Positions 10,619-54,488 of a DNA stretch of 64,000 bases are shown in pieces. Location of the stretch: assembly GCA_963811165.1 (NCBI GenBank), contig CAWEQH010000010.1:1024001-1088000 (forward strand), written 5' to 3'. This stretch comes from an uncultured Nitrospiraceae bacterium (lineage in GTDB: Bacteria > Nitrospirota > Thermodesulfovibrionia > Thermodesulfovibrionales > UBA6898). A program made the translations under genes and the position numbers. The notes under the pieces were generated by a model that was given only the letters and a program-made list of their open reading frames with translations, did no database searches and had not been told where the DNA came from. The first letter of the stretch is position 1. Every line of letters starts with the position of its first letter.

Positions 10619-10663
10619 AAAAACAAAAAGCCGAACTACCGTTTTTTCCTTCGGCAGCTCGGC
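10619..10663 (-). terminator. Intrinsic terminator, the expression platform of the riboswitch
   Basis: GCCGAGCUGCCG-aaggaaaaaa-CGGUAGUUCGGC-UUUUUGUUUUU. The 5' arm is shared with the aptamer 3' end. Confidence 0.82.
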
Positions 10664-10727
10664 CATCTTATTAAAAGATCCGCCGCTTTCCGCACCCTTT
10701 TCACAAAGGGGCTGGCTTGTCGGGACT
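10646..10727 (-). ncRNA. GEMM-I family cyclic dinucleotide riboswitch aptamer (c-di-GMP-I / cGAMP class)
   Basis: Minus strand reads UCCCGACAAG-CC-AGC-CCCUUU-GUGA-AAAGGG-UGC-GG-AAAGC-GGCGGAUC..GAUGGCCGAGCUGCCGAAGGA. This gives a GNRA-capped P2, the GGAAAGC junction and the GAURGCCGRGYUGCCG 3' end typical of GEMM-I. It lies in a 5' leader. Confidence 0.8.
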
Positions 10728-42140: not shown

Positions 42141-42207
42141 AGAAAGTGTATTGATGAATTATAACAGACTGGAAGAGGGCGCAAAGATTCACCGTCAAAA
42201 AATAAGA

Positions 42208-42341
42208 ACTGGGTAAGGACGGCTTTTTCGCTCATTCTCGTCCCGAAAAGTTGGTAGCGGGACTCCGAGGCAATTTCTCGACTCGCCGTATGCGAGTCAA
42301 AACGAGAAATTGAAGCCGCTCAAATGCCGTCCTCACTCAGT
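42208..42341 (-). repeat. Structured repeat family, copy A
   Basis: Minus strand: stem ACTGAGTGAGGACGGC, GAGCGG, hairpin, CCTCGGA, hairpin, GAGAATGAGCG, closing stem GCCGTCCTTACCCAGT. Confidence 0.85.
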
Positions 42342-42450
42342 GGTCGCGTATAGGCTGTAAGGACTAGGTTGTTTTGCCTGCTGCATGCTGATACACTTTG
42401 TTCATGGAGCCGATAATCAGACATAGGATTTTTTATCCAAAAGGCTGCTC

Positions 42451-43836
42451 ATGAAAGAGTATGACGTCGTAGTTATCGGTTCCGGAGCTGCGCTTCATAT
42501 TGTCGAAAATGCCATGTCCCATGGGTTTTCTACGGCACTGATCGACCGGGGGCCTCTTGGCGGGACCTGCCTCAATGTGGGCTGCATACCGTCAAAGATG
42601 CTCATCTATCCCGGCGACAGGGTCATGGAGATCATGGATTCGGAGAAACTCGGCGTGACCGCAGAGATAAGGGATATCGACTTCAATGCGATCATGAAGA
42701 GGATGGTAAGGACGGTATCCAGGGGTGAAGCCCATATAAGGGAGGTCATCCGGCTGGCCGAGGAACTTGATTTCTACGAGGGACAGGGACATTTCATCGC
42801 CGAACGCACACTTGAGGTAAACGGCGAGCAGGTCAGGGGGAAGAGGATATTCATCGCCTCCGGGGTCAGACCCCAGGTACCCCCTATCCCGGGAATAGAC
42901 ATGATAGATTTTCTGACCAACGAGAGTCTGCTTCGTCTAAAGACGAGACCGGAAAGCCTTATCATTCTGGGGGGTGGCTACATAGCCGCGGAATATGCCC
43001 ATTTTTTTTCGGCCATGGGCAGCGCAGTTACCATACTTCAGAGAAACAAGAGGATCGTGCCTGACGAAGAGCCCGAGGTATCCGAGCTCCTGAGAAAAAA
43101 GCTCGGAGCGCGAATGAAGGTGTTTACGAATACGGAGGCGGTCTCGATAAGGAAATCGGGGCGGGACTGCGAAGTCACCGCCAGGGAGAGAGGGTCCGGC
43201 AAAGAAAGAAAATTCTCAGCCGAAAAGATCCTCCTTGCCAGCGGAAGGACCTCGAATGCCGATCTTTTGAGGGTCCAGGATACCGGGGTCGAGACAGATA
43301 AACGGAACTTCATAAAGGTAAACGAATATTTCGAGACGAGCACGAAAAATATATGGGCCTTCGGCGACGCGCTCGGGAAAAAGATGTTCAGACATGTTGC
43401 AAACAAAGAGGCGGCCGCCGTCTTTCGCAATGCCTTTCACAATTCGAAGGAAACGGTCGATTACCTCGCTGCGCCGCACGCGGTTTTTACCTGGCCCGAG
43501 ATCGCATCGGTCGGCCTCACCGAAGAAGAAGCGAGACGGCGGTACCATATCCATGATCTTCTTGTGGGCAGGGCAAACTATTCAGACGTTGCACGCGGAG
43601 AAGCGATGATGGAGGAGGAGGGTTTCTGTAAAGCGATCGTAAAAAAAGACGGGGACAAGATACTCGGGTTCCATATCATCGGCCCGCATGCCTCAATCCT
43701 TATCCAGGAGGTAATCATCGCAATGGCAAATAACCTGAACATCTGGGCAATGAATAAAGGTATGCATATCCATCCCTCTTTGTCCGAAGTGATCATGGCC
43801 GCCCTGGGCAACCTCGAAGAAGCCGGAGCAGCATAG
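42451..43836 (+). CDS. Class I pyridine nucleotide-disulfide oxidoreductase (dihydrolipoamide dehydrogenase / mycothione reductase-like)
   Basis: GGTCLNVGCIPSK, GGGYIAAEY, PHAVFT.PEIASVG, HIHPSLSE. No E1/E2 genes adjacent. Confidence 0.9.
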   Translation: MKEYDVVVIGSGAALHIVENAMSHGFSTALIDRGPLGGTCLNVGCIPSKMLIYPGDRVMEIMDSEKLGVTAEIRDIDFNAIMKRMVRTVSRGEAHIREVIRLAEELDFYEGQGHFIAERTLEVNGEQVRGKRIFIASGVRPQVPPIPGIDMIDFLTNESLLRLKTRPESLIILGGGYIAAEYAHFFSAMGSAVTILQRNKRIVPDEEPEVSELLRKKLGARMKVFTNTEAVSIRKSGRDCEVTARERGSGKERKFSAEKILLASGRTSNADLLRVQDTGVETDKRNFIKVNEYFETSTKNIWAFGDALGKKMFRHVANKEAAAVFRNAFHNSKETVDYLAAPHAVFTWPEIASVGLTEEEARRRYHIHDLLVGRANYSDVARGEAMMEEEGFCKAIVKKDGDKILGFHIIGPHASILIQEVIIAMANNLNIWAMNKGMHIHPSLSEVIMAALGNLEEAGAA

Positions 43837-44237
43837 GTCTCTTCTTCCTGCCGGCGCTGCCGTTATTGAAAGTATTTTCTCGCCATTTCAAGCTTTTTTT
43901 CTGAAAGACTTCAAGGCTGCTCCCCCCTTCGAGGGCATGATGTCGAGGCCGTAAAATCGGACTTTTTCGGTTTTAATAGTTGCTTTAATTCATAATTATA
44001 TAGTTTCGAAATATCTTGACATTTGTTTTCCTTTTGCTTATCCTATGAAAAATAATTCTCAATTTCGGTGACAGGGGTTGATAATGCTCATAAGACATTT
44101 GTCCCAGTTTGCCAACAGTAGGCCTTCCACCAGGCTCAGCAGCCCGATGCAATCCGTAATTACCTTTCCCCATTTCTTAAGGAAATCCAGTTCATGAACT
44201 TTTGATCAAAAGTAAAAATAACTTTTAGGGGGTACCG

Positions 44238-45703
44238 ATGAAGGTATTAAAAGTGTCATTTCAGTTCGTTGCAGCAGTCATTTTGTCGTTGTTTCCTTTA
44301 GGCGCTTCGTCGAATGCGACTACCGACCATACAACACTGATAAAAGGGCCTTTCAAAAACGGGGAAGAAGTGACAAAGGCATGCCTTCAGTGTCACGAGA
44401 AACAGGCGGATGAAGTCATGCAGACCCCCCATTACAAATGGAAAGGAGTTCCGCGAACGGTAAAAGGCCTCGAAAACAGTAAGGAGGAATACGGCAAGGC
44501 AAATCTGGTCAATAACTTCTGCACCGACGTCGAGGGCGGCAGCAGGCCCTTCTGCATCAAATGTCATGCGGGCTACGGTTGGACGGAAAATGGCTCCCTG
44601 CCTGCGGAAAAGTCCAAGGTCGACTGTCTTGTGTGTCATGCGAAAGAAGGCAGATACAGAAAGGGCATCGGCGGAGAGGTAGACCAGGAGTTGTTCTCAA
44701 GGGGGAAAATGGACCTCGTAAAGGCGGCCCAGAGTGTAAGCCTGCCCAACCGGGACAACTGCGGGGTCTGCCATTTCTTCGGTGGGGGGGAGACGCGGTC
44801 AAGCATGGCGACCTGGATTCTACACTTAGTAAACCCAAGAAGGCGCATGACGTCCACATGGGCGGGCCGGCCGACATGAACTGTCAGGCATGTCATGTCT
44901 CTAAGGATCACAGGATCGCAGGGGCCTCTACCTTTTTGGCCACGAACGACGGAAGGGTCTCCTGCGAGGACTGCCACAGAGACCCGCACAAGGACTCTTC
45001 GGAGCATAAACTTCTCTTAAGACATTCAAAAACCGTCGCATGTCAGACATGCCACATCCCGGTCTTTGCAAAAGGACAGGCCACAAAGATGAGCTGGGAC
45101 TGGTCAGACGTCGGAAAGGACCTTGAGCCGACTGAGACATTCGGCAAAGAGACGTTTGCCAAACACAAAGGGACCTTTGTATGGGCCATGAATGTAACGC
45201 CGAGTTACGCATGGTATAACGGTAAAATCGAGAGATATCTTAAGGGAGATAAGATAAAAAACCCGAGCCAGACAGTCTATCTCTCACGGCCGGTCGGAAA
45301 CATAAAAGACGAAGACTCCAAAATCTATCCCTTCAAGATCCACAGGGGCAAACAGCCCATGGATTCACAGTATAAATATCTTTCGATTTTCCAGAATTAC
45401 GGCGGATTGTGGTCCCATTATAACTGGCAAAAGGCGCTGACGGACGGCGCAAAGGCCTCGGGTCTTCCCTATAGCGGCAAGTTCGAGTTCGTCTCCACCG
45501 CCTTCTACGGAAGTATAAACCATGAAGTCGTTCCCAAGGAACAGGCCCTGAAATGCGGGGACTGCCATTTTGGCAAAGACACGCGGCTTGACTGGAAGGC
45601 CCTCGGCTATGCCGGCGACCCAATGAGGGTAGGAGGAAGGTTTGAAAAAACATCGAAAGAAACTGCAGTCAGAAAGGTTTTAAAAAAAGCAGCCGTTAAA
45701 TAA
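44238..45703 (+). CDS. Octaheme tetrathionate reductase (Otr)-family cytochrome c; frameshift at G7 run 44784-44790
   Basis: Signal peptide, GK...NNFC, four CxxCH before and four after the shift. One added G restores CHFFGGGGDAVKHGDLD. Confidence 0.9.
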
Positions 45704-45754
45704 AACAACAAAAGAGCGGCCTTAATTGCCGCTTCGGAAAAAAAGGAGGAAGGT

Positions 45755-46075
45755 ATGAAAAGAGTTTCAAGTGCAGCTACGGTCCTGGCCCTGATGATTT
45801 TCTGTCTGTCCATAGTCGCCGCTGTTGCGGTGGCGGAGGACAAAATCAGCGTAAAAGGCAAGATCAAGGACTATGACCTTGACGCCAAAACCGTGTTGGT
45901 CACGACCGACGACGGCAAAGACATGACGTTCGTTATAGAAAACGAAAAGGCCCTTCAAAAACTCGATGACAGACTCTTTAAGGGGGACGAGGTAAAGGTC
46001 AAATACACCGTTAAGGACGGCAAAAACTGCGTCAGGGAAAACAGCGACTTCAAAGGCACAAAACCAGGCTGCTGA
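45755..46075 (+). CDS. Small exported OB-fold-like protein ending in Gly-Cys
   Basis: Signal peptide AVA-ED; VKGKIK..D...KTV.V...GDEVKVKY; C-terminus KPGC; strong RBS. Confidence 0.85.
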   Translation: MKRVSSAATVLALMIFCLSIVAAVAVAEDKISVKGKIKDYDLDAKTVLVTTDDGKDMTFVIENEKALQKLDDRLFKGDEVKVKYTVKDGKNCVRENSDFKGTKPGC

Positions 46076-46104
46076 GCGGCCGAACGTTCCAAGGAGGTGT
46101 TCGA

Positions 46105-47695
46105 ATGAAAGTATTCCTTGCGGTACTGCTCTCTCTTTCTCTTTTTGTCCCGGTCTCTGCCTTTGCGGCCGATCAGGCAGAACTGATGAAAAAGATAGAC
46201 GACATGTCAAGGCAGCTACAGGAGCTGAAGCAGCAGATGCAGGACATGCAGAAAAAAGAGACCGCAGCAACGGAGAAGATCAAGAAGGTCGAAAAAAAGG
46301 TCGAAGACGGCCTCAAAGCCGTCGTGGCTTGAAATCGGCGGCGATTACAGGGGCAGGTATGACTACCTCAAAGGCACGGTCCACGACTACTACAGCTTTA
46401 CCCAGGTCCTGCCGTTTTTCCTCGGCATGCCCGGCGCACAGGCGCCGCAGCTGATTCAGGCCCACGACGTAAAGAACGATGCTCTTTTGACAAACCGTTT
46501 CGGGCTTAACCTCAAGGCAAGGGCGACTGAAGACATCACGGTAAAGGCAAGATTGCTGATGTACAAGGTTTGGGGACATGAGACGGACGAGCCTGTCGCA
46601 GGCCCCACGAGCGCATTTTTTGCCGACAAGTTTTTTGTCTTCGACGGCAATGTTTCTCATATCCCTGAAGACAATGTCCTCAGGGTAGACCAGGCATTTG
46701 CAACATGGTCAAATATTGGAAAACTCCCCGTATGGTTTTCTGTCGGCAGACGGCCCTCAACAGGAGGCGTCCCGACCAATTTAAGACAAAACGTCGAAAA
46801 AAGCGGAAGCTCGGGGGTGCCGGGGCTTCTTGTAGACTACGCATTCGACGGCGCGACGCTGGGCGTTGCCCCGGACATAGACGCCCTGCCCGGCGCATAT
46901 GCAAAAATCTGTTATGGAAGGGGCTTTGACGCGGGGTTCAAGTCCTCGGATAAGGGCCTCAATAATGTGGACTTCATGGGCGTAAATGTGGTCCCCTACG
47001 ACACCGACAATCTCCATGTCGAGCTTCAGTGGGACCGCGGGTTCCAGTTTTTCGCTTTTCCGGAGAACACGTTTAGTCCCTTATTCAACGCCAGCAATAC
47101 AAATCTCGGTGACATAGACCAGTACGGCGCACTCGTTATGGGGAAGATTAAAGACATCGGGATCGGCGACCTCAATCTTTTCGTAAACGGCGCCGTAAGC
47201 CGGTCACATCCCAACGATAACCTCTTTTCCATCGACACGCCTTCGGGACCCGTTCCCGTTGCCGGTCTCCTTTATGACGCACCGAATTTCGGCGGGGTAA
47301 AGGAAGGCCACACCGGCACGGCCCTTTATCTGGGCACGAGATATGATATTACGTCTACGGGCACCAAAATTGGTCTGGAATATAATTACGGCTCCAAGTA
47401 CTGGGTGGCCTTCACACCGGCCTCGGACGATATGTGGACAAGCAAGCTCGGGGCCCACGGAAATGTCTATGAGGCATATGTCATCCAGGAGATCAAAAGC
47501 AAGCCGATATCAAAGTACGGCAAGGCCTTCTTCAGGCTGGGGTATCAGTATTACGATTTCAACTACACAGGAAGCAACAACTGGGTGGGAGCGCCGAAAA
47601 GCATGTCGGATTTGAACAACCCAATGAACGCCCAGATGTTTGCACCTCTTGAGAAGGCCCATGACGTATATCTGACCTTTGAGGTAACGTTCTAA
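46105..47695 (+). CDS. DUF3373-type outer-membrane (porin-like) protein; frameshift near 46290-46320
   Basis: Signal peptide and coiled coil, then in the next frame PSWLEIGGDYRGRYD...LTNRFGLNL...SVGRRPSTGG.P...; C-terminal Phe (FEVTF). Confidence 0.85.
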
Positions 47696-47706
47696 CGTGC
47701 CGTTAC

Positions 47707-47744
47707 ACGCGCCGTGCGGCTGATGCCGCACGGCGCGTCATTTT
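47707..47744 (+). terminator. Intrinsic terminator of the otr operon
   Basis: Perfect 14-bp stem ACGCGCCGTGCGGC-TGAT-GCCGCACGGCGCGT followed by CATTTT. Confidence 0.8.
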
Positions 47745-47864
47745 GAACATATATGGCCCTTGAAATGTCTCTCCCTGCCCTGCCCTCTTCGCGGCCCCGC
47801 CTGCCATGGTCACATCCACCTATCGAACTAAAATCCAAATTATTTTTCCTGAATTTTCCCATCC

Positions 47865-50192
47865 TTACCACTTCAAAAAGAGCCTTCTGAGATTCCTCCA
47901 TTCAGCGGCAGGGCCGTCGGCCTTTTCGAGCACAAAATCACTATAGGTCTTTATAACGAGGCCGTCGTCCTTTTCGGTTATCTTGACCGCGCCGTCCCTG
48001 TCGGTCCTGAAAACCTTGACACCTGATAGTCTTTCAAGGACATCAGGACTCGGATGACCGAAGGAATTGTCCCTGCCCACCGAAATGACAGCGACAGAGG
48101 GAGAGACACTCGAAATAAACTCAGGACCGGCGGACGTCCTGCTGCCGTGATGGGGAACCTTAATTACATCTGCGCGAAGCCATTTCGTAAGATGGGAGAT
48201 GTCCCGCTCCGCTTCTCCCCCTGTGTCCCCTGCGAAAAGGAATGTCTTCTTTCGTCCCTTTATACTAAGCACAAGAGACGAGTTGTTTTCTTCTTCATAG
48301 TCATTGCCGTCGCGGGTGTAGAATTCCCTGTAGGGATGGAGCACGGTTATGCTGCAATCTCCGGCATCGATCATGTCTCCCCTTTCGAGCGTCCTCCGCT
48401 TTGCCTTCAGCCCCATCTCCTCAGGATACACGATCCGGCCATTGTCCCAGATTTCCCTTGTTTGGAACTTCTCCATAAGATAGCCGAGCCCGCCTGAGTG
48501 GTCGGGATGGACATGGCTTATGACGAGGGCATCTATCGACCGCATACCTTCGTAGGCAAGATATGCAGCCGTCTCCTTCCCGGTCCTTCCCGTATCGATG
48601 ACGATTACCCTTTTGTCGGGCAGCCGGACAACAGCGGAATCACCCTGCCCGACGTCAAGAAAAGTTACGCTCAATGCCCCCTTTTCAAAAGCGACCAGTG
48701 CGGCAAAAACGGCCAGCGGCAAAAACGGCAGAAGAAGCCATTTCTTCTTCCTGCCGAAAAAGAAATATGGGATAAAACCGAGGTAGAACACTATGCAAAG
48801 GACCGGAGGGAATGCGGGAAGTTTGACGTCCGCAAAAGGTACTTTCGCCAGGAGCTTGACAAGAGCGACCGAGGCATCTGCCGTCCACGACACAAAAGGG
48901 GCGAAGAGGTAGTGTCCTGTGAGCAGAAATGTAAAGGAGGATACCACCGCCAGCCCCACAAGGACAAAACCTATAAGCGGCGAGGCGATAAGGTTTGAAA
49001 GAGGCGAAATGAGGGAGAAGTAGTGGAAGTAAAAGGCCACAAGAGGGGCCGTGCCCAGTGACGCCGCCAGTGTAAGTGAAACGGATTGCTTCACGTGATG
49101 AACCAGTCTGTTTCCCTTATCTTCTTCTTCATCATCCCCCTTCTCCAGTGCAACGCCTATGAAGAACACTGCTATGAAGGACAGCCGAAAGGAAATGCTC
49201 TGGAGCACTTCGGGATTCCATAGCACCAAAAGACAGGCAGCTAAAAGGAGGGAATTCAGCCAAAACCCTTTTCTGCCCAGAAGGAGAGCAAGAAGGAAAA
49301 GGGTTATCATAACAAACGACCTGACCGCAGGAGGACTGGAACCCGAGATGCCCAGGTACAGGACCATTACCGGCATCGTAAGGACCGCAGCGGCCTGAGA
49401 CGGCGTTACGTAGATCGTCATCCTCTGCAACATTCCGTAAGGCAGTCTTTTTATCAAAAAGACGAACGTTCCGAACATCATAACGGAAAAAAGACCGAAG
49501 TGTGTACCGGAGATGCTGAGGATGTGCGCAAGCCCCGTCACGTTGAACGCCTCTTTCAGGTCATCTCCAAGGTAGGACGTCTCGCCGGTCGTCACCGACG
49601 CGATGAGGGCCGCCGAGTCCTTCCGGAACCTGCCCAAGACATACTCATTGATGCGTTTTCTCAATTTGTTGAAGTAATTCGTAATGGACGGGGAAGCGCG
49701 GCCTGCAACCCTCAGCTCCGCTGCCTCACCGTACAGCTTCACCTGCCCCCAGCCTCCCGGGTTTCTGCGCGACCTGTCCTTACCGGTCTTCAAAAGGACT
49801 TCGTACTCTTCGTCTGAGTCGGCCTCGAAGTCTGTAAAGACGGTTGCATCCTTATCCTGGAGGTCTTCGATCTCCGAGTCGGATTCATCTTCTAAGGCAG
49901 TGTCTATCGAGAAGGTTTTCGCATCGCTACCGGGAAACGGAGCATTACTGCTAGGCAGGAACCTCCCCGTCAGTATCAGTTTTTTGTTCCAGAGATCAAG
50001 TGTTTCCACCCCGGGCGAAAATCTTACATAGGCATAAGAAATACCTAGGACGACAATCAGGAGCAACACATATCTTTTCCTCCTCACGATGAGGACCGCG
50101 GCGGCCGCAAGGAGTATGGCGGATGTGATCGGGAAAAAACGGAACAAAGAAAAAAGCGCCGTCCCGTAGATAAAAGAAATAAAACCCATCAT
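47865..50192 (-). CDS. comEC: DNA uptake competence protein ComEC/Rec2
   Basis: GLAHILSISGTH, SFRLSF, FLDVGQGD, SHVHPDHSGG, KVPHHGS, FGHP, RTDRDGAV. Confidence 0.93.
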   Translation of the reverse strand: MMGFISFIYGTALFSLFRFFPITSAILLAAAAVLIVRRKRYVLLLIVVLGISYAYVRFSPGVETLDLWNKKLILTGRFLPSSNAPFPGSDAKTFSIDTALEDESDSEIEDLQDKDATVFTDFEADSDEEYEVLLKTGKDRSRRNPGGWGQVKLYGEAAELRVAGRASPSITNYFNKLRKRINEYVLGRFRKDSAALIASVTTGETSYLGDDLKEAFNVTGLAHILSISGTHFGLFSVMMFGTFVFLIKRLPYGMLQRMTIYVTPSQAAAVLTMPVMVLYLGISGSSPPAVRSFVMITLFLLALLLGRKGFWLNSLLLAACLLVLWNPEVLQSISFRLSFIAVFFIGVALEKGDDEEEDKGNRLVHHVKQSVSLTLAASLGTAPLVAFYFHYFSLISPLSNLIASPLIGFVLVGLAVVSSFTFLLTGHYLFAPFVSWTADASVALVKLLAKVPFADVKLPAFPPVLCIVFYLGFIPYFFFGRKKKWLLLPFLPLAVFAALVAFEKGALSVTFLDVGQGDSAVVRLPDKRVIVIDTGRTGKETAAYLAYEGMRSIDALVISHVHPDHSGGLGYLMEKFQTREIWDNGRIVYPEEMGLKAKRRTLERGDMIDAGDCSITVLHPYREFYTRDGNDYEEENNSSLVLSIKGRKKTFLFAGDTGGEAERDISHLTKWLRADVIKVPHHGSRTSAGPEFISSVSPSVAVISVGRDNSFGHPSPDVLERLSGVKVFRTDRDGAVKITEKDDGLVIKTYSDFVLEKADGPAAEWRNLRRLFLKW

Positions 50193-50220
50193 CGCCGGAA
50201 CAAAACCCCTGACTCACATG

Positions 50221-50347
50221 ATAAGGCGGGATATGGTATTTGAGCGGTTTTTTTTGCCGATATTCCGAAAGTCTGTTTATTTGCGATGAAGAGGCAAAAG
50301 CCTCGGAGCGAAGCGAGAATGAGCGAAAATACTATATCCCGCCTTAT
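50221..50347 (+). repeat. Structured repeat family, copy B
   Basis: 21-bp closing stem, GAGCGG, TTTTGCC..GGCAAAAG arm, CCTCGGA, GCGAAGC, GAGAATGAGCG. Confidence 0.85.
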
Positions 50348-50443
50348 ATTTTGCACAGGTCCGCTGCGTCCCCCCATAAGACGATCCCCCGATCTACACA
50401 ATTTATTTCATCAGCCCAAAGCCATCGCAAAGGATTCAATCCA

Positions 50444-50557
50444 AGGGCAGGCATGGTATTGGAGCGACTTCTTTTATCCCGATGAATATCGGGAGAAAAG
50501 CCCTCGGAGATCCGCTTCCTGCGGATCGAGAATGAGCTACGATACTATGTCTGCCCT
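50444..50557 (+). repeat. Structured repeat family, copy C
   Basis: 18-bp closing stem with 3 G-T pairs, GAGCGA, TCCCGAT-GAAT-ATCGGGA, CCTCGGA, GATCCGC..GCGGATC, GAGAATGAGC. Confidence 0.85.
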
Positions 50558-50598
50558 ATTCCCATATTATCTCAACATTACCATCCCAATACCAAAGG

Positions 50599-51948
50599 TT
50601 ACTGCATCTTCTCCCGTATCACCTTCGAGATGTCCCGCCCCAGTTTCGTGATAAGCTTCTCGTCCTCCCCTTCAAGCATGACCCTTATCTTAGGCTCCGT
50701 ACCGGATGCCCTGACGAGCACCCTACCCCTGCTGCCGAGCTTTTTCTCAGCCGTTTCCACCGCGCTTTCGATATCGGGGACCGAACGGATATCCTGTTTT
50801 TTCTCGACCTCGACGTTCATAAGGACCTGGGGAAAAAGCTTGATCCTCGATGCCAGTTTAGAAAGCGGCGCATTACTGATTTTCATAAGACTTAGGACCT
50901 GGGCCGCCGTGATGGGTCCATCACCGGTTGTATTGTAATCCAGAAATATTATGTGGCCCGACTGTTCTCCGCCCATGTTAAAGCCGCCGTCGAGCATCTT
51001 TTCGACCACGTACCTGTCTCCCACCTGGGTCCTCAAGAGCCGGACGCCATGTTTTTCGAGGAACCTTTCAAGCCCTAGGTTGCTCATCACCGTTGCCACG
51101 ACCGTCTTCCCTTTCAAGCTGCCGGACCTGACCATGTCGGCTGCACACATGCCCATGATCCTGTCGCCGTCAACGGGCCTGCCCTTCTCGTCGCAAAGCA
51201 ACGTCCGGTCCCCGTCGCCGTCATGCGCGATCCCTATATCCGCCGTGTGTTCGATCACCGCCTTCTGCAGACCCGCCATATTTAGAGAACCGCAATCAAG
51301 ATTAATGTTGGTGCCGTCAGGCCTGTCGTTGAGCGAAATCACCTCGGCCCCTAGTTCACGCAATAGCCATGGCGTTGTCTTGTATGCCGCACCGTTTGCG
51401 CAGTCGACAACGATCTTCATCCCTTCAAGCGTAGTGCCCTTCGGGAGCGTTGACTTTATATATTCGATATACCTGCCGGTGGCGTCGTCGAGCCTGAAGG
51501 CCTTTCCGACCTCTTCACCTTTAGGCCTGAACTTTTCCAGGTGATCGTCCATCACAAGGTCCTCTATCCTCTTTTCGACCGAATCAGGAAGTTTGAAGCC
51601 GTCGTAAGAGAAGAACTTTATCCCGTTGTCCTGGAAAGGGTTGTGCGACGCAGAAATCACGATCCCGGCATCGATCCTCAGGGTCCTTGTGAGAAATGCG
51701 ATTCCGGGGGTCGGAAGCGGGCCTACCAGGGTCACATCCATGCCCATGGAGCAGATCCCCGACGTAAGGGCGCTTTCTATCATATATCCCGACAGCCGCG
51801 TGTCCTTGCCTATGAGCACCATATTCCTGCCGTGGAGTTCCTTACGGAGCACCGTTGCGGCCGCCATGCCTATCCTTAAGACGTTTTCAGGCTTCATCGG
51901 ATATTTATTGATCCGGCCCCTTATGCCGTCCGTGCCGAAGAGTCTCAT
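50599..51948 (-). CDS. glmM: Phosphoglucosamine mutase
   Basis: LFGTDGIRG, GKDTRLSGYM, ISASHNP, DGDGDR, GGEQSGH, RASGTEP. Confidence 0.97.
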   Translation of the reverse strand: MRLFGTDGIRGRINKYPMKPENVLRIGMAAATVLRKELHGRNMVLIGKDTRLSGYMIESALTSGICSMGMDVTLVGPLPTPGIAFLTRTLRIDAGIVISASHNPFQDNGIKFFSYDGFKLPDSVEKRIEDLVMDDHLEKFRPKGEEVGKAFRLDDATGRYIEYIKSTLPKGTTLEGMKIVVDCANGAAYKTTPWLLRELGAEVISLNDRPDGTNINLDCGSLNMAGLQKAVIEHTADIGIAHDGDGDRTLLCDEKGRPVDGDRIMGMCAADMVRSGSLKGKTVVATVMSNLGLERFLEKHGVRLLRTQVGDRYVVEKMLDGGFNMGGEQSGHIIFLDYNTTGDGPITAAQVLSLMKISNAPLSKLASRIKLFPQVLMNVEVEKKQDIRSVPDIESAVETAEKKLGSRGRVLVRASGTEPKIRVMLEGEDEKLITKLGRDISKVIREKMQ

Positions 51949-52592
51949 TTCCTTCCTCCTGCTATTACGACCGTGACCCTGACCTTCTCCCTTTCAGGCT
52001 TGACATTGGCGCCGGCCGCGTCTATATTCAGCTCCTGGGTCTGCGTAGAGTTTATTCCGGATATATCCATCTGGTCCGTCCCGATCTCGCTGATCTTCCT
52101 CACCTCGGTCTTGAGGCCCTGGATAACAATATTCTTCGGCTCCACATCGACAGTTTTCACATAATATCCGGGTGCCGGCGAGCCGGTTATCGAGGCCCTC
52201 ACCGGGACCGCCTTTGTGACCGTTTCGTCGAGCCTTACCCGGATGGTTGAAGGATCGATACTCGTTACCGACATCGCGTAGGGAAGTTTCACGTCGTCTT
52301 TGTTGATATGATAACTCCCCTCGCCCTTTCTGGCCTTACTCATATCGACCAATACCCTTATGTCGGAGGGTCTCAGACTCTTCATGATCCTGTCCTGCCC
52401 CTTCACCGTCACGTTCGCGGACTTCGCACTTGAGTTGACGATACCGAGACCGATCGGCACGTCCTTGAATTCGATCGGGACTTCGAAAGACACCTCCGAC
52501 TGTCCCTTCCATGTCACAAAGAGCCAAAGCAAAACCGCAATAAGGACCGCCGAAACCTTGAGCCCTAAATTTTCGAACAACAGCTTTCTCAT
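51945..52592 (-). CDS. cdaR: CdaR/YbbR-like regulator of diadenylate cyclase
   Basis: N.GLK..A..IA..LWL TM segment and YbbR-like repeats; located between cdaA and glmM with overlapping stop/start codons. Confidence 0.88.
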   Translation of the reverse strand: MRKLLFENLGLKVSAVLIAVLLWLFVTWKGQSEVSFEVPIEFKDVPIGLGIVNSSAKSANVTVKGQDRIMKSLRPSDIRVLVDMSKARKGEGSYHINKDDVKLPYAMSVTSIDPSTIRVRLDETVTKAVPVRASITGSPAPGYYVKTVDVEPKNIVIQGLKTEVRKISEIGTDQMDISGINSTQTQELNIDAAGANVKPEREKVRVTVVIAGGRK

Positions 52593-53356
52593 TTTTTCCC
52601 CTTCTGAGAAGAAAATACATCTGTTAGGAGGTCCCTCATCGTCCCCATATCGAGCTTGGTCTCTAACTTGCCATCCATGGCCATCGAGATAAAGCCCGTC
52701 TCCTCGGAAACGATGATCGCGATCGCGTCCGTTTCTTCGGTCAGTCCTATGCCCGCCCTGTGGCGCGTGCCCAGGGACTTGCTCAGCTCCGAACTGAGCG
52801 TGATCGGCAAAAAGCATCCGGCGGCGGCTATCCTGTTGCCCTTAATAATGACCGCCCCGTCGTGAATAGGAGACGTAGGATGAAAGATGCTGGCCAGCAA
52901 TTCCCTGGACACTTTTGCGTCTAAAGGCGTGCCGACCTCGATAAAGTCCTTGAGGCTCGTGTCCCGCTCGATGACGATGAGGGCGCCGATCTTTCTGTTG
53001 GCGAGCGATATTGAGGCCCTTACGATCTCTTCTAAGGACTTCAGTTCTTCGGCCTTCGTAAAGGTAAGAAACTGCGCCTCCCCTATATGGGCGAGAGCCC
53101 TCCGGATCTCGGGCTGAAACAGGACAATGATCGCGATAACGATCTGCGCCCAGAAACTCTGCACCAGCCAATCAATCGTATAGAGTTCAAGGTACCGTGA
53201 GGCCACCGAAGCCAGCAAAAGGATGCCAAGCCCTATCAGCATCTGCACGGCCTTCGTCCCCTTCAGGATAAGGAGCAGCCGGTAGAGGACCACCGACATC
53301 AGCGCGATATCGAGAAAATTAAGTATCCATCTGTGTTGTCTTAGAAGCTCTACCAT
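52589..53356 (-). CDS. cdaA: Diadenylate cyclase
   Basis: 3 TM segments, FQPEIRRAL, catalytic HDGA and GTRHRA motifs, VSEETG. Confidence 0.95.
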   Translation of the reverse strand: MVELLRQHRWILNFLDIALMSVVLYRLLLILKGTKAVQMLIGLGILLLASVASRYLELYTIDWLVQSFWAQIVIAIIVLFQPEIRRALAHIGEAQFLTFTKAEELKSLEEIVRASISLANRKIGALIVIERDTSLKDFIEVGTPLDAKVSRELLASIFHPTSPIHDGAVIIKGNRIAAAGCFLPITLSSELSKSLGTRHRAGIGLTEETDAIAIIVSEETGFISMAMDGKLETKLDMGTMRDLLTDVFSSQKGKK

Positions 53357-53490
53357 TTTCTACACGGGTCCCCCGGATATTGTTAAGTATCTAATTATAT
53401 ATCATGCAATATTAATTTTCCCGCGATATGAGGTAATGACCTCACTTTGTCGTATACTATTGTTATAATTTCCCCAGAGGAGCGGACTGA

Positions 53491-54255
53491 ATGAACGCCG
53501 TTGAGCTCTATAAGAAACTGCCGAAGAAAAACTGCGGTAAATGCAGCCTAAAGACATGCATGCCCTTTGCGCTTGCGGTGATCAAAGGTGATGCGGAGCT
53601 TGCCGAATGTCCCCTTCTCACCGGAGATGCGATAATTGAGATAGAGGGCTCCCTCAAGCGGTCGGACTGGCGTGAAGAATTGATCCTTAAACTGAGGGAA
53701 GAAATTAAGGGCATCGATTTCAGCGAAGTCGCGGAAGGGATCGGCGCCACCGTAAGAGACGGCGTACTCGTCCTCGACTGTTTCGGAAGGGAATTCAGGA
53801 TATCGCCTGACGGAGAAATAGCAGCCCAGGGGCGCATGACGCCCTGGATAAGAATCCTCGTTCTGCACTATGTCCGCACGGCAGGCAAAGGCGGCCTGAC
53901 GGGCAAGTACGTCTCTTACAGCGAGGTAAAGGGCGGAATGGTGAAGGCGTCCTCGTTTCAGAGGGATTGCGAGGAACCGCTCACGGAATTGTTCAAGAGA
54001 GATTTTGAAAAAACCGCGCTCATGTTGTCGAGGATGGGCACGAAGAAAAAAAAGGGTTTTCCGACAGAGCACGCATGGGAACTATACCTGCTCCCCAAGC
54101 TGCCCGTCACCGTCCTTTATTGGCCTCAGGAGGAAGAATTCCCGTCCAGGGTAAAGATACTCTTCGATTCTTCGGCTGACAGGTATCTTGACGCGGAGTC
54201 GCTCATATTCTTAGTCGAAGGGCTCGTCAAGAATATCGAGATGTCGCTGCACTGA
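53491..54255 (+). CDS. DUF3786 protein with N-terminal 4Fe-4S domain (paralogue of 30588-31364)
   Basis: LYKKLPKKNCGKCSLKTCMPFA...CP; LPKLP...YW..EEEFP....ILFD. Confidence 0.87.
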   Translation: MNAVELYKKLPKKNCGKCSLKTCMPFALAVIKGDAELAECPLLTGDAIIEIEGSLKRSDWREELILKLREEIKGIDFSEVAEGIGATVRDGVLVLDCFGREFRISPDGEIAAQGRMTPWIRILVLHYVRTAGKGGLTGKYVSYSEVKGGMVKASSFQRDCEEPLTELFKRDFEKTALMLSRMGTKKKKGFPTEHAWELYLLPKLPVTVLYWPQEEEFPSRVKILFDSSADRYLDAESLIFLVEGLVKNIEMSLH

Positions 54256-54274
54256 TTTCGTTTGTTGCGAGGCA

Positions 54275-54377
54275 GGGGGTGGTACTCGAACGGCTTCTCT
54301 TAACCCGATGAATATTGGGGGAAAAGCCCTCGGAGGGCTGACTTCGTCGGCCCGGCAATGATGAGAATACCGTCCCC
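54275..54377 (+). repeat. Structured repeat family, copy D (most diverged)
   Basis: GGGGGTGGTA..TACCGTCCCC stem, GAACGG, CCCGAT-GAAT-ATTGGG, CCTCGGA, GGGCTGAC-TTC-GTCGGCCC, GGCAATGA. Confidence 0.78.
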
Positions 54378-54488
54378 ACGCACACCTCATAATCTTCTGA
54401 TGGCAGCTTATCTCGGAAGCTCCTAAATTGCTTTTATCACGGATTTCCGTTACATTTTATATGAGGCTGATCGGATGCCTCCCACCCT

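Follow-up and report, generated by a model that had tools for sequence, protein, structure and literature searches.

The stretch of DNA analysed here (the window) comprises 64,000 nucleotides from an uncultured Nitrospiraceae bacterium (GenBank assembly GCA_963811165.1, contig CAWEQH010000010.1, positions 1,024,001 to 1,088,000 of the forward strand) and contains four elements, named A to D, which are members of an uncatalogued mobile repeat of about 130 bases occurring in several bacterial phyla. The preferred reading, held with a probability of roughly 0.55, is that A to D represent a mobile non-coding repeat that folds as single-stranded DNA (ssDNA), in this lineage partly carried inside miniature IS1380 transposons. 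Exactly four strong matches to a covariance model of the family are found in the window and these are A to D, which were in the training set of the model. A first-pass annotation had described the four elements; the coordinates, strands and layout that it claimed were all verified on the sequence:

42208..42341, minus strand: element A, in the order P1, tandem GA pairs, GC/GC pair, P2, CCTCGGA, P3, GAGAATGAGC, P1'; on this strand CCTCGGA starts at 42270 and GAGAATGAGC at 42239.
50221..50347, plus strand: element B, whose P3 is the mini-hairpin GCGAAGC of 7 nt and which lies antisense to comEC and glmM, with no remnant of the transposon shells described below.
50444..50557, plus strand: element C, antisense to glmM and downstream of it.
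54275..54377, plus strand: element D, which is decaying and has AC/GT as variant pair as well as GGCAATGA.

Members of the family are 105-190 nt long and share an anatomy that was derived from 136 distinct copies, pre-filtered on P1 pairing. The P1 stem of about 19 bp is followed by opposed GA/GA dinucleotides and by a two-pair helix which covaries, being GC/GC in 114 copies and AC/GT in 12; past this helix there are GG, a three-base bulge, P2, CCTCGGA, P3, whose closing G-C pair was imposed by the search pattern, and GAGAATGA. The multi-way junction with a conserved core that had been proposed is indeed a three-way junction with covarying stems, and about 25 of its bases are near-invariant across phyla. 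P1, P2 and P3 differ between copies and stay paired, as remarked before, with a covariation well above that of shuffled and slid controls: in a 38-sequence alignment 92.6% of the cells are paired versus 67.9% after shuffling, both sides vary in 21 of the 25 pairs, and control structures obtained by sliding are 41-48% paired. Taken singly, the four elements fold with z values of -5.9, -6.4, -7.6 and -2.6 against shuffles. A reading of the junction as a k-turn was rejected, position 1n being G in 131 of the 136 copies.

The first-pass annotation had also suggested that one particular strand is selected to fold, and G-T pairs do far exceed A-C pairs on this strand. In P1 columns 4-14 of the 136 copies they number 152 versus 27, and in the unfiltered set of 47 copies from a planctomycete genome, G426, 43 versus 8; the excess is less marked in P2 (29 versus 16). 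P1 of A to D includes seven G-T pairs and the inner stems of D two more (by eye), which reproduces the nine reported; besides one A-C pair, in A, there is one C-A atop P1 of D that the first-pass annotation had left uncounted. In the G426 set 697 of 752 P1 positions are paired. Among its copies, 24 pairs with identical P3 have a P1 identity of 0.46-0.54 versus 0.45-0.47 in the other pairs (columns 5-16); identical P3 thus goes without more similar P1 arms, P1 still being paired, which indicates that stems and interiors reassort or get rewritten independently.

A covariance-model search, as advised in the first-pass annotation, returned further copies in this genome, in its relatives and in other phyla. 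A strict pattern recognises 20 copies in this genome versus none in a reversed control, while the model, built on the 38-sequence alignment, gives 39 matches among the 150 candidates scored out of 582, 37 of them at E < 1e-6. With 54 candidates scored per genome, 40 of 61 relatives are matched, at 0 to at least 54 copies each, and two near-complete genomes of the same genus hold 0 copies. A pattern scan of species-representative genomes matched at least 132 stretches; the 80 titled loci are in majority from Nitrospirota, and also from Planctomycetota, Latescibacterota, Gemmatimonadetes, Deltaproteobacteria, Auribacterota, Elusimicrobiales and the candidate phyla radiation (CPR). Copy number is patchy and bursting across phyla: G426 carries 117 copies, and of 30 sampled relatives of this planctomycete 27 carry none and three have one chance-like match, no close relative of G426 being found among the sampled genomes. 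No core copy was found in viral contigs. Rfam scans of the window and of 32 loci from other genomes gave no family match, TwoAYGGAY, riboswitches and self-cleaving ribozymes included; over the elements only weak chance matches of miRNA/snoRNA type, below the gathering score, are present, in line with the earlier statement that no hammerhead, twister, pistol or glmS core is matched. A description of the motif was not found in the open-access literature, the 224-motif supplement of Weinberg 2017 (PMC5737381) lying outside this coverage.

Loop statistics favour ssDNA as the probable acting form, and with it the general idea, already advanced, of an ssDNA substrate. Among 213 copies the seven-base P3 arms are GCGNAGC in 30 of 37, and C(GNA)G loops make up 68 of 470 loops on the fold strand versus 5 of 463 on the opposite strand; the same 470 loops include nine GNRA and no cUNCGg. 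GCGNAGC and GCGNNAGC are described as extraordinarily stable DNA mini-hairpins, with RNA counterparts that are considerably less stable (PMC13037366). The opposed GA pairs lie in a pyrimidine-GA-purine context in 185 and 161 of the 213 arms, in which tandem pairs of DNA are described to be sheared (PMC10085684). Folding energies modestly favour the fold strand with DNA and with RNA parameters, the chemistry being left undecided by them. Sheared tandem G-A pairs are formed by RNA too, and the context of the GA pairs is therefore neutral between DNA and RNA. Relative to co-directional genes the fold strand is antisense in 70 cases and sense in 27 in a Nitrospirota-dominated set, whose copies are not independent; within the window the mixed orientation reported before, with D sense and B and C antisense, is found again. 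These counts, together with 270 unrelated neighbour genes, agree with the view that the element is not an ordinary riboswitch.

An outer inverted repeat was found through k-mer enrichment outside P1. Its ends are about 18 bp long and of two types, T1 and T2. Of 202 copies, 28 are bordered by T1 ends on both sides, 10 of these also showing a perfect YTAR-type repeat of 4 bp, and 12 have a T1 end on one side; six of the 202 pass a loose test for T2, and an exact 5-bp repeat accompanies four of the six. Shifted control windows give 1, 3 and 1 of 487 for T1 on both sides, T1 on one side and T2, respectively. For one locus (L208) this genome provides a clean empty site, with the 5-mer present once. 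T1 ends and a CTAG duplication also delimit an autonomous element in genome G274, which codes for a 444-aa IS1380 transposase (NF033539; 410 bits, cut-off 180), and the T2 end matches that on the right of a further IS1380-type element (L297). A shelled core adjoins the insertion sequence (IS) in 2 of 58 T1 IS loci, in one case sharing its TTAG target. By a position-specific test, passed by about 4% by chance, an end at the expected spacing is present in 71 of 186 Nitrospirota copies, in 12 of 29 copies of this genome and in 1 of 49 copies from other phyla. Only the shelled subset consists of IS1380 miniature transposable elements with inverted repeats (MITEs). The shells went unrecognised in the first-pass annotation though many copies sit in them. 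Around A to D the following remnants were found, the T2 profile being made of four seed sequences, three of them shells:

42182..42199, minus strand: eroded T2 right end by A, ending 46 nt past the A core (score 12.5, p<0.001 versus shifted windows), at the spacing of intact shells.
54396..54414, plus strand: eroded T2 right end by D, about 48 nt past the D core (score 7.3, p=0.003).
50415..50432, plus strand: possible eroded T1 left end by C, 47 nt ahead of the C core; weak (p=0.017, under the 99th-percentile cut).

For B the position-specific test found no IS1380-type end at the expected spacing, and A to D themselves show neither a target-site duplication with shell ends nor an empty site. 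The earlier remark that target-site duplications are missing stands for the P1 borders; it does not reach the mobile unit, which in this lineage often exceeds P1, A and D keeping an eroded IS1380-type right end. No core lies inside IS1380 in 58 T1-type and 13 other IS1380 loci, two matches sitting in adjacent shells, and a derivation of the core from the IS1380 right end was discarded, no core being present within any of the 71 loci. T1 shells without the core exist. Searches for IS1380 were blank here and in five genomes from other lineages that bear copies. Since the core is no part of the IS, T1 shells can be core-less and these six genomes gave no IS1380, the shells are a secondary carrier of the core. 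In viral contigs no relative of the IS was found and one isolated T1-like end was seen; in plasmids the left end of the IS is without match. Three T1 shells in genome G054 (L258, L271, L281) have P1-like arms and a different core, and may represent a sister cargo family. The 3' non-coding region of T1-type IS1380 (L315-L394) is nearly fixed in length, about 201-214 nt in most, with a barely conserved sequence and one conserved motif close to the stop codon.

Mobility is visible between strains and species. A 19-kb contig from run X2 is about 96-97% identical to the window; in it the interior of A is inverted between its P1 arms, the left part of D is deleted at a 5-nt microhomology, and 198 other letters stand for the 407-nt B/C interval. 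Both orientations of A are present in run X4. The flip of A is unlikely to be an assembly artefact, because the index words of the contigs, with 31 letters, exceed the arms, with 19 bp. The comEC-glmM interval is without B and C in five congeners that have a glmM locus. Among the sister-species comparisons listed, the same site often has no copy or a copy of a different subfamily, and a head-to-head pair of copies is inverted as one block; divergent doublets of copies occur as well. As a separate observation, a 4-kb block of the window (43847-47861), coding for multiheme cytochromes c and for a DUF3373 protein, is missing in the X2 and X4 strains, which have 11 other letters there, and appears to be a recent gain or loss. 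In the planctomycete one copy (L412, G426:C4:34390) is located between the start codon and the GFTLIE pilin-type N-terminus of a gene, and one of its P1 arms resembles, by eye, the leader sequence of the host, which hints at stems templated on the target; within shells, where P1 is internal, an origin of P1 by inverted copying of the target was found unsupported.

The neighbourhood of the copies discloses no dedicated partner. Neighbouring open reading frames (ORFs), examined by clustering and, for 270, by Pfam scans, are unrelated genes of housekeeping type; the one exception is an ssn-like gene, which has repeats of its own. For copies of this genome that lie outside the window, the neighbours were covered by the clustering alone. 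No HUH, reverse transcriptase (RT) or nuclease partner came to light, nor any ssn gene flanked by the element: both ssn-like genes are flanked by CGTC-type hairpins. These are small GIY-YIG (Ssn-like) genes (L012, G000:C7:6323-6541, and L240:408-695) placed between inverted hairpins of this type, and such repeats are numerous elsewhere in the genome. Two DUF559 genes (L014 and L015, G000:C1:35466 and C8:182115) are adjoined by CCCCCCT..AGGGGGG hairpin repeats, and this module is also present within P2 of some copies. At about G000:C1 615970-616400 there is a distinct, longer intergenic repeat, likewise structured, whose hairpin modules are flanked by GA and whose closing hairpin is T-rich/A-rich. 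In the window A is flanked by divergent alpha/beta-hydrolase and pyridine-nucleotide oxidoreductase genes, and D lies in sense orientation between DUF3786 and ABC1-kinase genes. A further feature is found at B:

50189..50377, minus strand: short ORF (62 aa) that overlaps the start codon of comEC and contains B as an in-frame insertion.

By eye this ORF has about 15 aa in sister species G002 and seems conserved in congeners, its frame being kept despite the insertion of B, and translational coupling of a competence gene is possible from this arrangement. A c-di-GMP-I riboswitch is present at 10650-10726 of the window on the minus strand (44.8 bits versus a gathering score of 35).

According to the preferred reading, in which the unit would be a selfish one, a P1 of about 19 bp capped by the conserved three-way junction would be formed by one strand, likely as ssDNA, and P1 would close once this strand is exposed, in a replication gap or in a transposition intermediate. 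The invariant cap, with its sheared G-A pairs and GNA mini-hairpins, would then likely be bound or nicked by a protein acting in trans, by analogy with Ssn nucleases on SRM hairpins and RAYT on repetitive extragenic palindromes (REPs). Repair with strand switching, from one P1 arm to the other or from copy to copy, would invert and exchange the interiors and leave the new stems paired, as suggested by the inversions among strains, the block changes between sister species and the uncoupling of P1 from the interior. In Thermodesulfovibrionales-type genomes extra travel is likely provided by IS1380 MITE shells moved in trans; these would be a secondary vehicle, the shells eroding and the core persisting. 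A bolder version, to which only a minor share of belief is given, considers the copies as selfish ssDNA elements shared across phyla, whose junction would be acted on by a DNA-processing enzyme of a new kind or would itself be catalytic, the closing stem being rewritten in each copy and unrelated transposon ends being hijacked.

Several points weigh against the preferred reading. B is without a shell, the remnant by C is weak and the T2 profile stems largely from shells. The antisense bias is gone in other phyla (12:11), where the P3 loops are often CAGGA or GGATG, which resemble CsrA-binding RNA loops; G-T wobble and tandem G-A pairs fit RNA as well. In 29 of 37 copies of this genome the folding strand coincides with the C-rich one and as such is probably the leading-strand template, not the strand most exposed in replication, and this bias may reflect gene orientation alone. 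The mini-hairpin modules of P2 and P3 are also found in Ssn-type and DUF559-type repeats of this genome and so may be imported, not selected here. Finally, no transposase, integrase or RT was found among the 270 neighbouring ORFs and no Y1, IS1380 or RT gene was detected in this genome, which is 95% complete; such blanks weigh little, since draft genomes lose mobile genes.

Some of these points lead to RNA as the functional form, namely a multicopy ribozyme or a protein-binding RNA similar to TwoAYGGAY or CsrB, spread passively by MITEs and recombination. This is judged unlikely. The near-invariant junction bases and the G-T excess would suit an RNA, as would the architecture, patchy copy number and divergent doublets, which are described likewise for TwoAYGGAY (bioRxiv 10.64898/2026.09.22.753630), the presence of AYGGAY in 15 of 213 copies and the GGA loops of other phyla; however, GNRA and cUNCGg loops are rare or missing, a P3 of 2 bp with a GNA triloop would be marginal in RNA form, antisense orientation of the fold strand prevails in the Nitrospirota-dominated set, and neither the Rfam models, TwoAYGGAY included, nor the k-turn signature are matched. 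Less probable still is a plain family of IS1380-derived MITEs, functionless and with an interior conserved by recent descent. Such a family could have the ends, the duplications, the empty site, the autonomous partner and the end kept in 71 of the 186 Nitrospirota copies, but the core is absent from the IS1380 loci themselves, is found in two shell types and, in 48 of 49 copies from other phyla, lacks ends, while T1 shells exist without it; moreover, the junction is fixed while the stems turn over yet stay paired. The shell-less core across phyla already weakens this explanation.

The first-pass annotation had also considered a substrate of an HUH enzyme (RAYT or IS200/IS605), and in this form the proposal did not hold up. 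A REP/REPIN- or PATE-like role as the DNA on which a Y1 HUH transposase acts, i.e. RAYT or the TnpA of IS200/IS605, seems rather improbable: 27 Y1 loci were all without an adjoining copy, searches for Y1 were blank in this genome (G000) and in G001, G012, G430, G432, G433 and G435, several of them rich in copies, whereas Y1 genes are present in copy-free relatives, e.g. G004 and G005, and no tetranucleotide is conserved at the hairpin foot, the commonest 4-mer occurring 6-7 times in 213 copies. The strand-specific hairpin, the DNA-type loops, the inversion and the bursts are in its favour, and the absent gene is weak evidence, since GTAG-type repeats are also present in this genome without a Y1 gene. 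A junction that would cleave or process itself as a natural DNA, with no need of a dedicated protein, is very improbable; the lack of a partner among the 270 neighbours or in the genome and a DNA-type core invariant across phyla would agree with it, but non-autonomous repeats commonly outlive their enzyme and drafts often miss mobile genes.

Among known systems, the MITEs of IS1380 resemble the subset of elements with about 18-bp ends of the autonomous IS1380 (NF033539), 4-5-bp duplications, an empty site and no ORF; unlike them, the element has a core that is not IS-derived, two shell types and mostly no ends, including in other phyla. The Ssn/SRM system (NTS/SRM, CGTC-type REPs; GIY-YIG ssDNA nucleases), as far as it is described in PMC11893778, also consists of dispersed oriented hairpin repeats, and Ssn-related motifs act as ssDNA; SRM-like repeats of this genome have hairpin modules in common with the P2/P3 arms. 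Conversely, SRMs are simple hairpins of 20-50 nt flanking their own ssn gene (PMC11893778), while the element is a three-way junction of 105-190 nt. REP/REPIN-RAYT repeats, in their description in PMC3733652, are likewise non-coding and palindromic, with lineage-specific bursts and strand asymmetry, but the element has no GTAG/CGTC foot, no linked Y1 and a branched core. TwoAYGGAY (RF01731) is described with two hairpins on a basal stem and tens to hundreds of strain-variable copies, with divergent doublets (bioRxiv 10.64898/2026.09.22.753630); its covariance model gives no match, and the element is conserved at the junction, not in AYGGAY loops. The repeats bcr1 of Bacillus cereus and ERIC are, by their description in PMC3184786, mobile repeats of about 130-155 bp, with, in bcr1, changes that are compensatory, a fold that is branched and direct repeats of 5 bp; differently from the element, which spans phyla and has DNA-type loops, they are described as lineage-restricted and as transcribed RNA folds.

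The element is outside the Ssn/SRM, REP/RAYT and Rfam families by the membership tests that could be run, and is real and uncatalogued. Two different types of IS1380 ends have taken up one and the same non-coding cargo, and strong covariation with a G-T bias in intergenic motifs does not necessarily imply RNA. A core fixed from Nitrospirota to Planctomycetota and CPR, with stems turning over, predicts an undiscovered partner or activity, and a defined substrate of about 110 nt is now at hand for tests; the hairpin-repeat families last traced to their partners yielded new enzymes, the RAYT transposases and the site-specific ssDNA nucleases Ssn.

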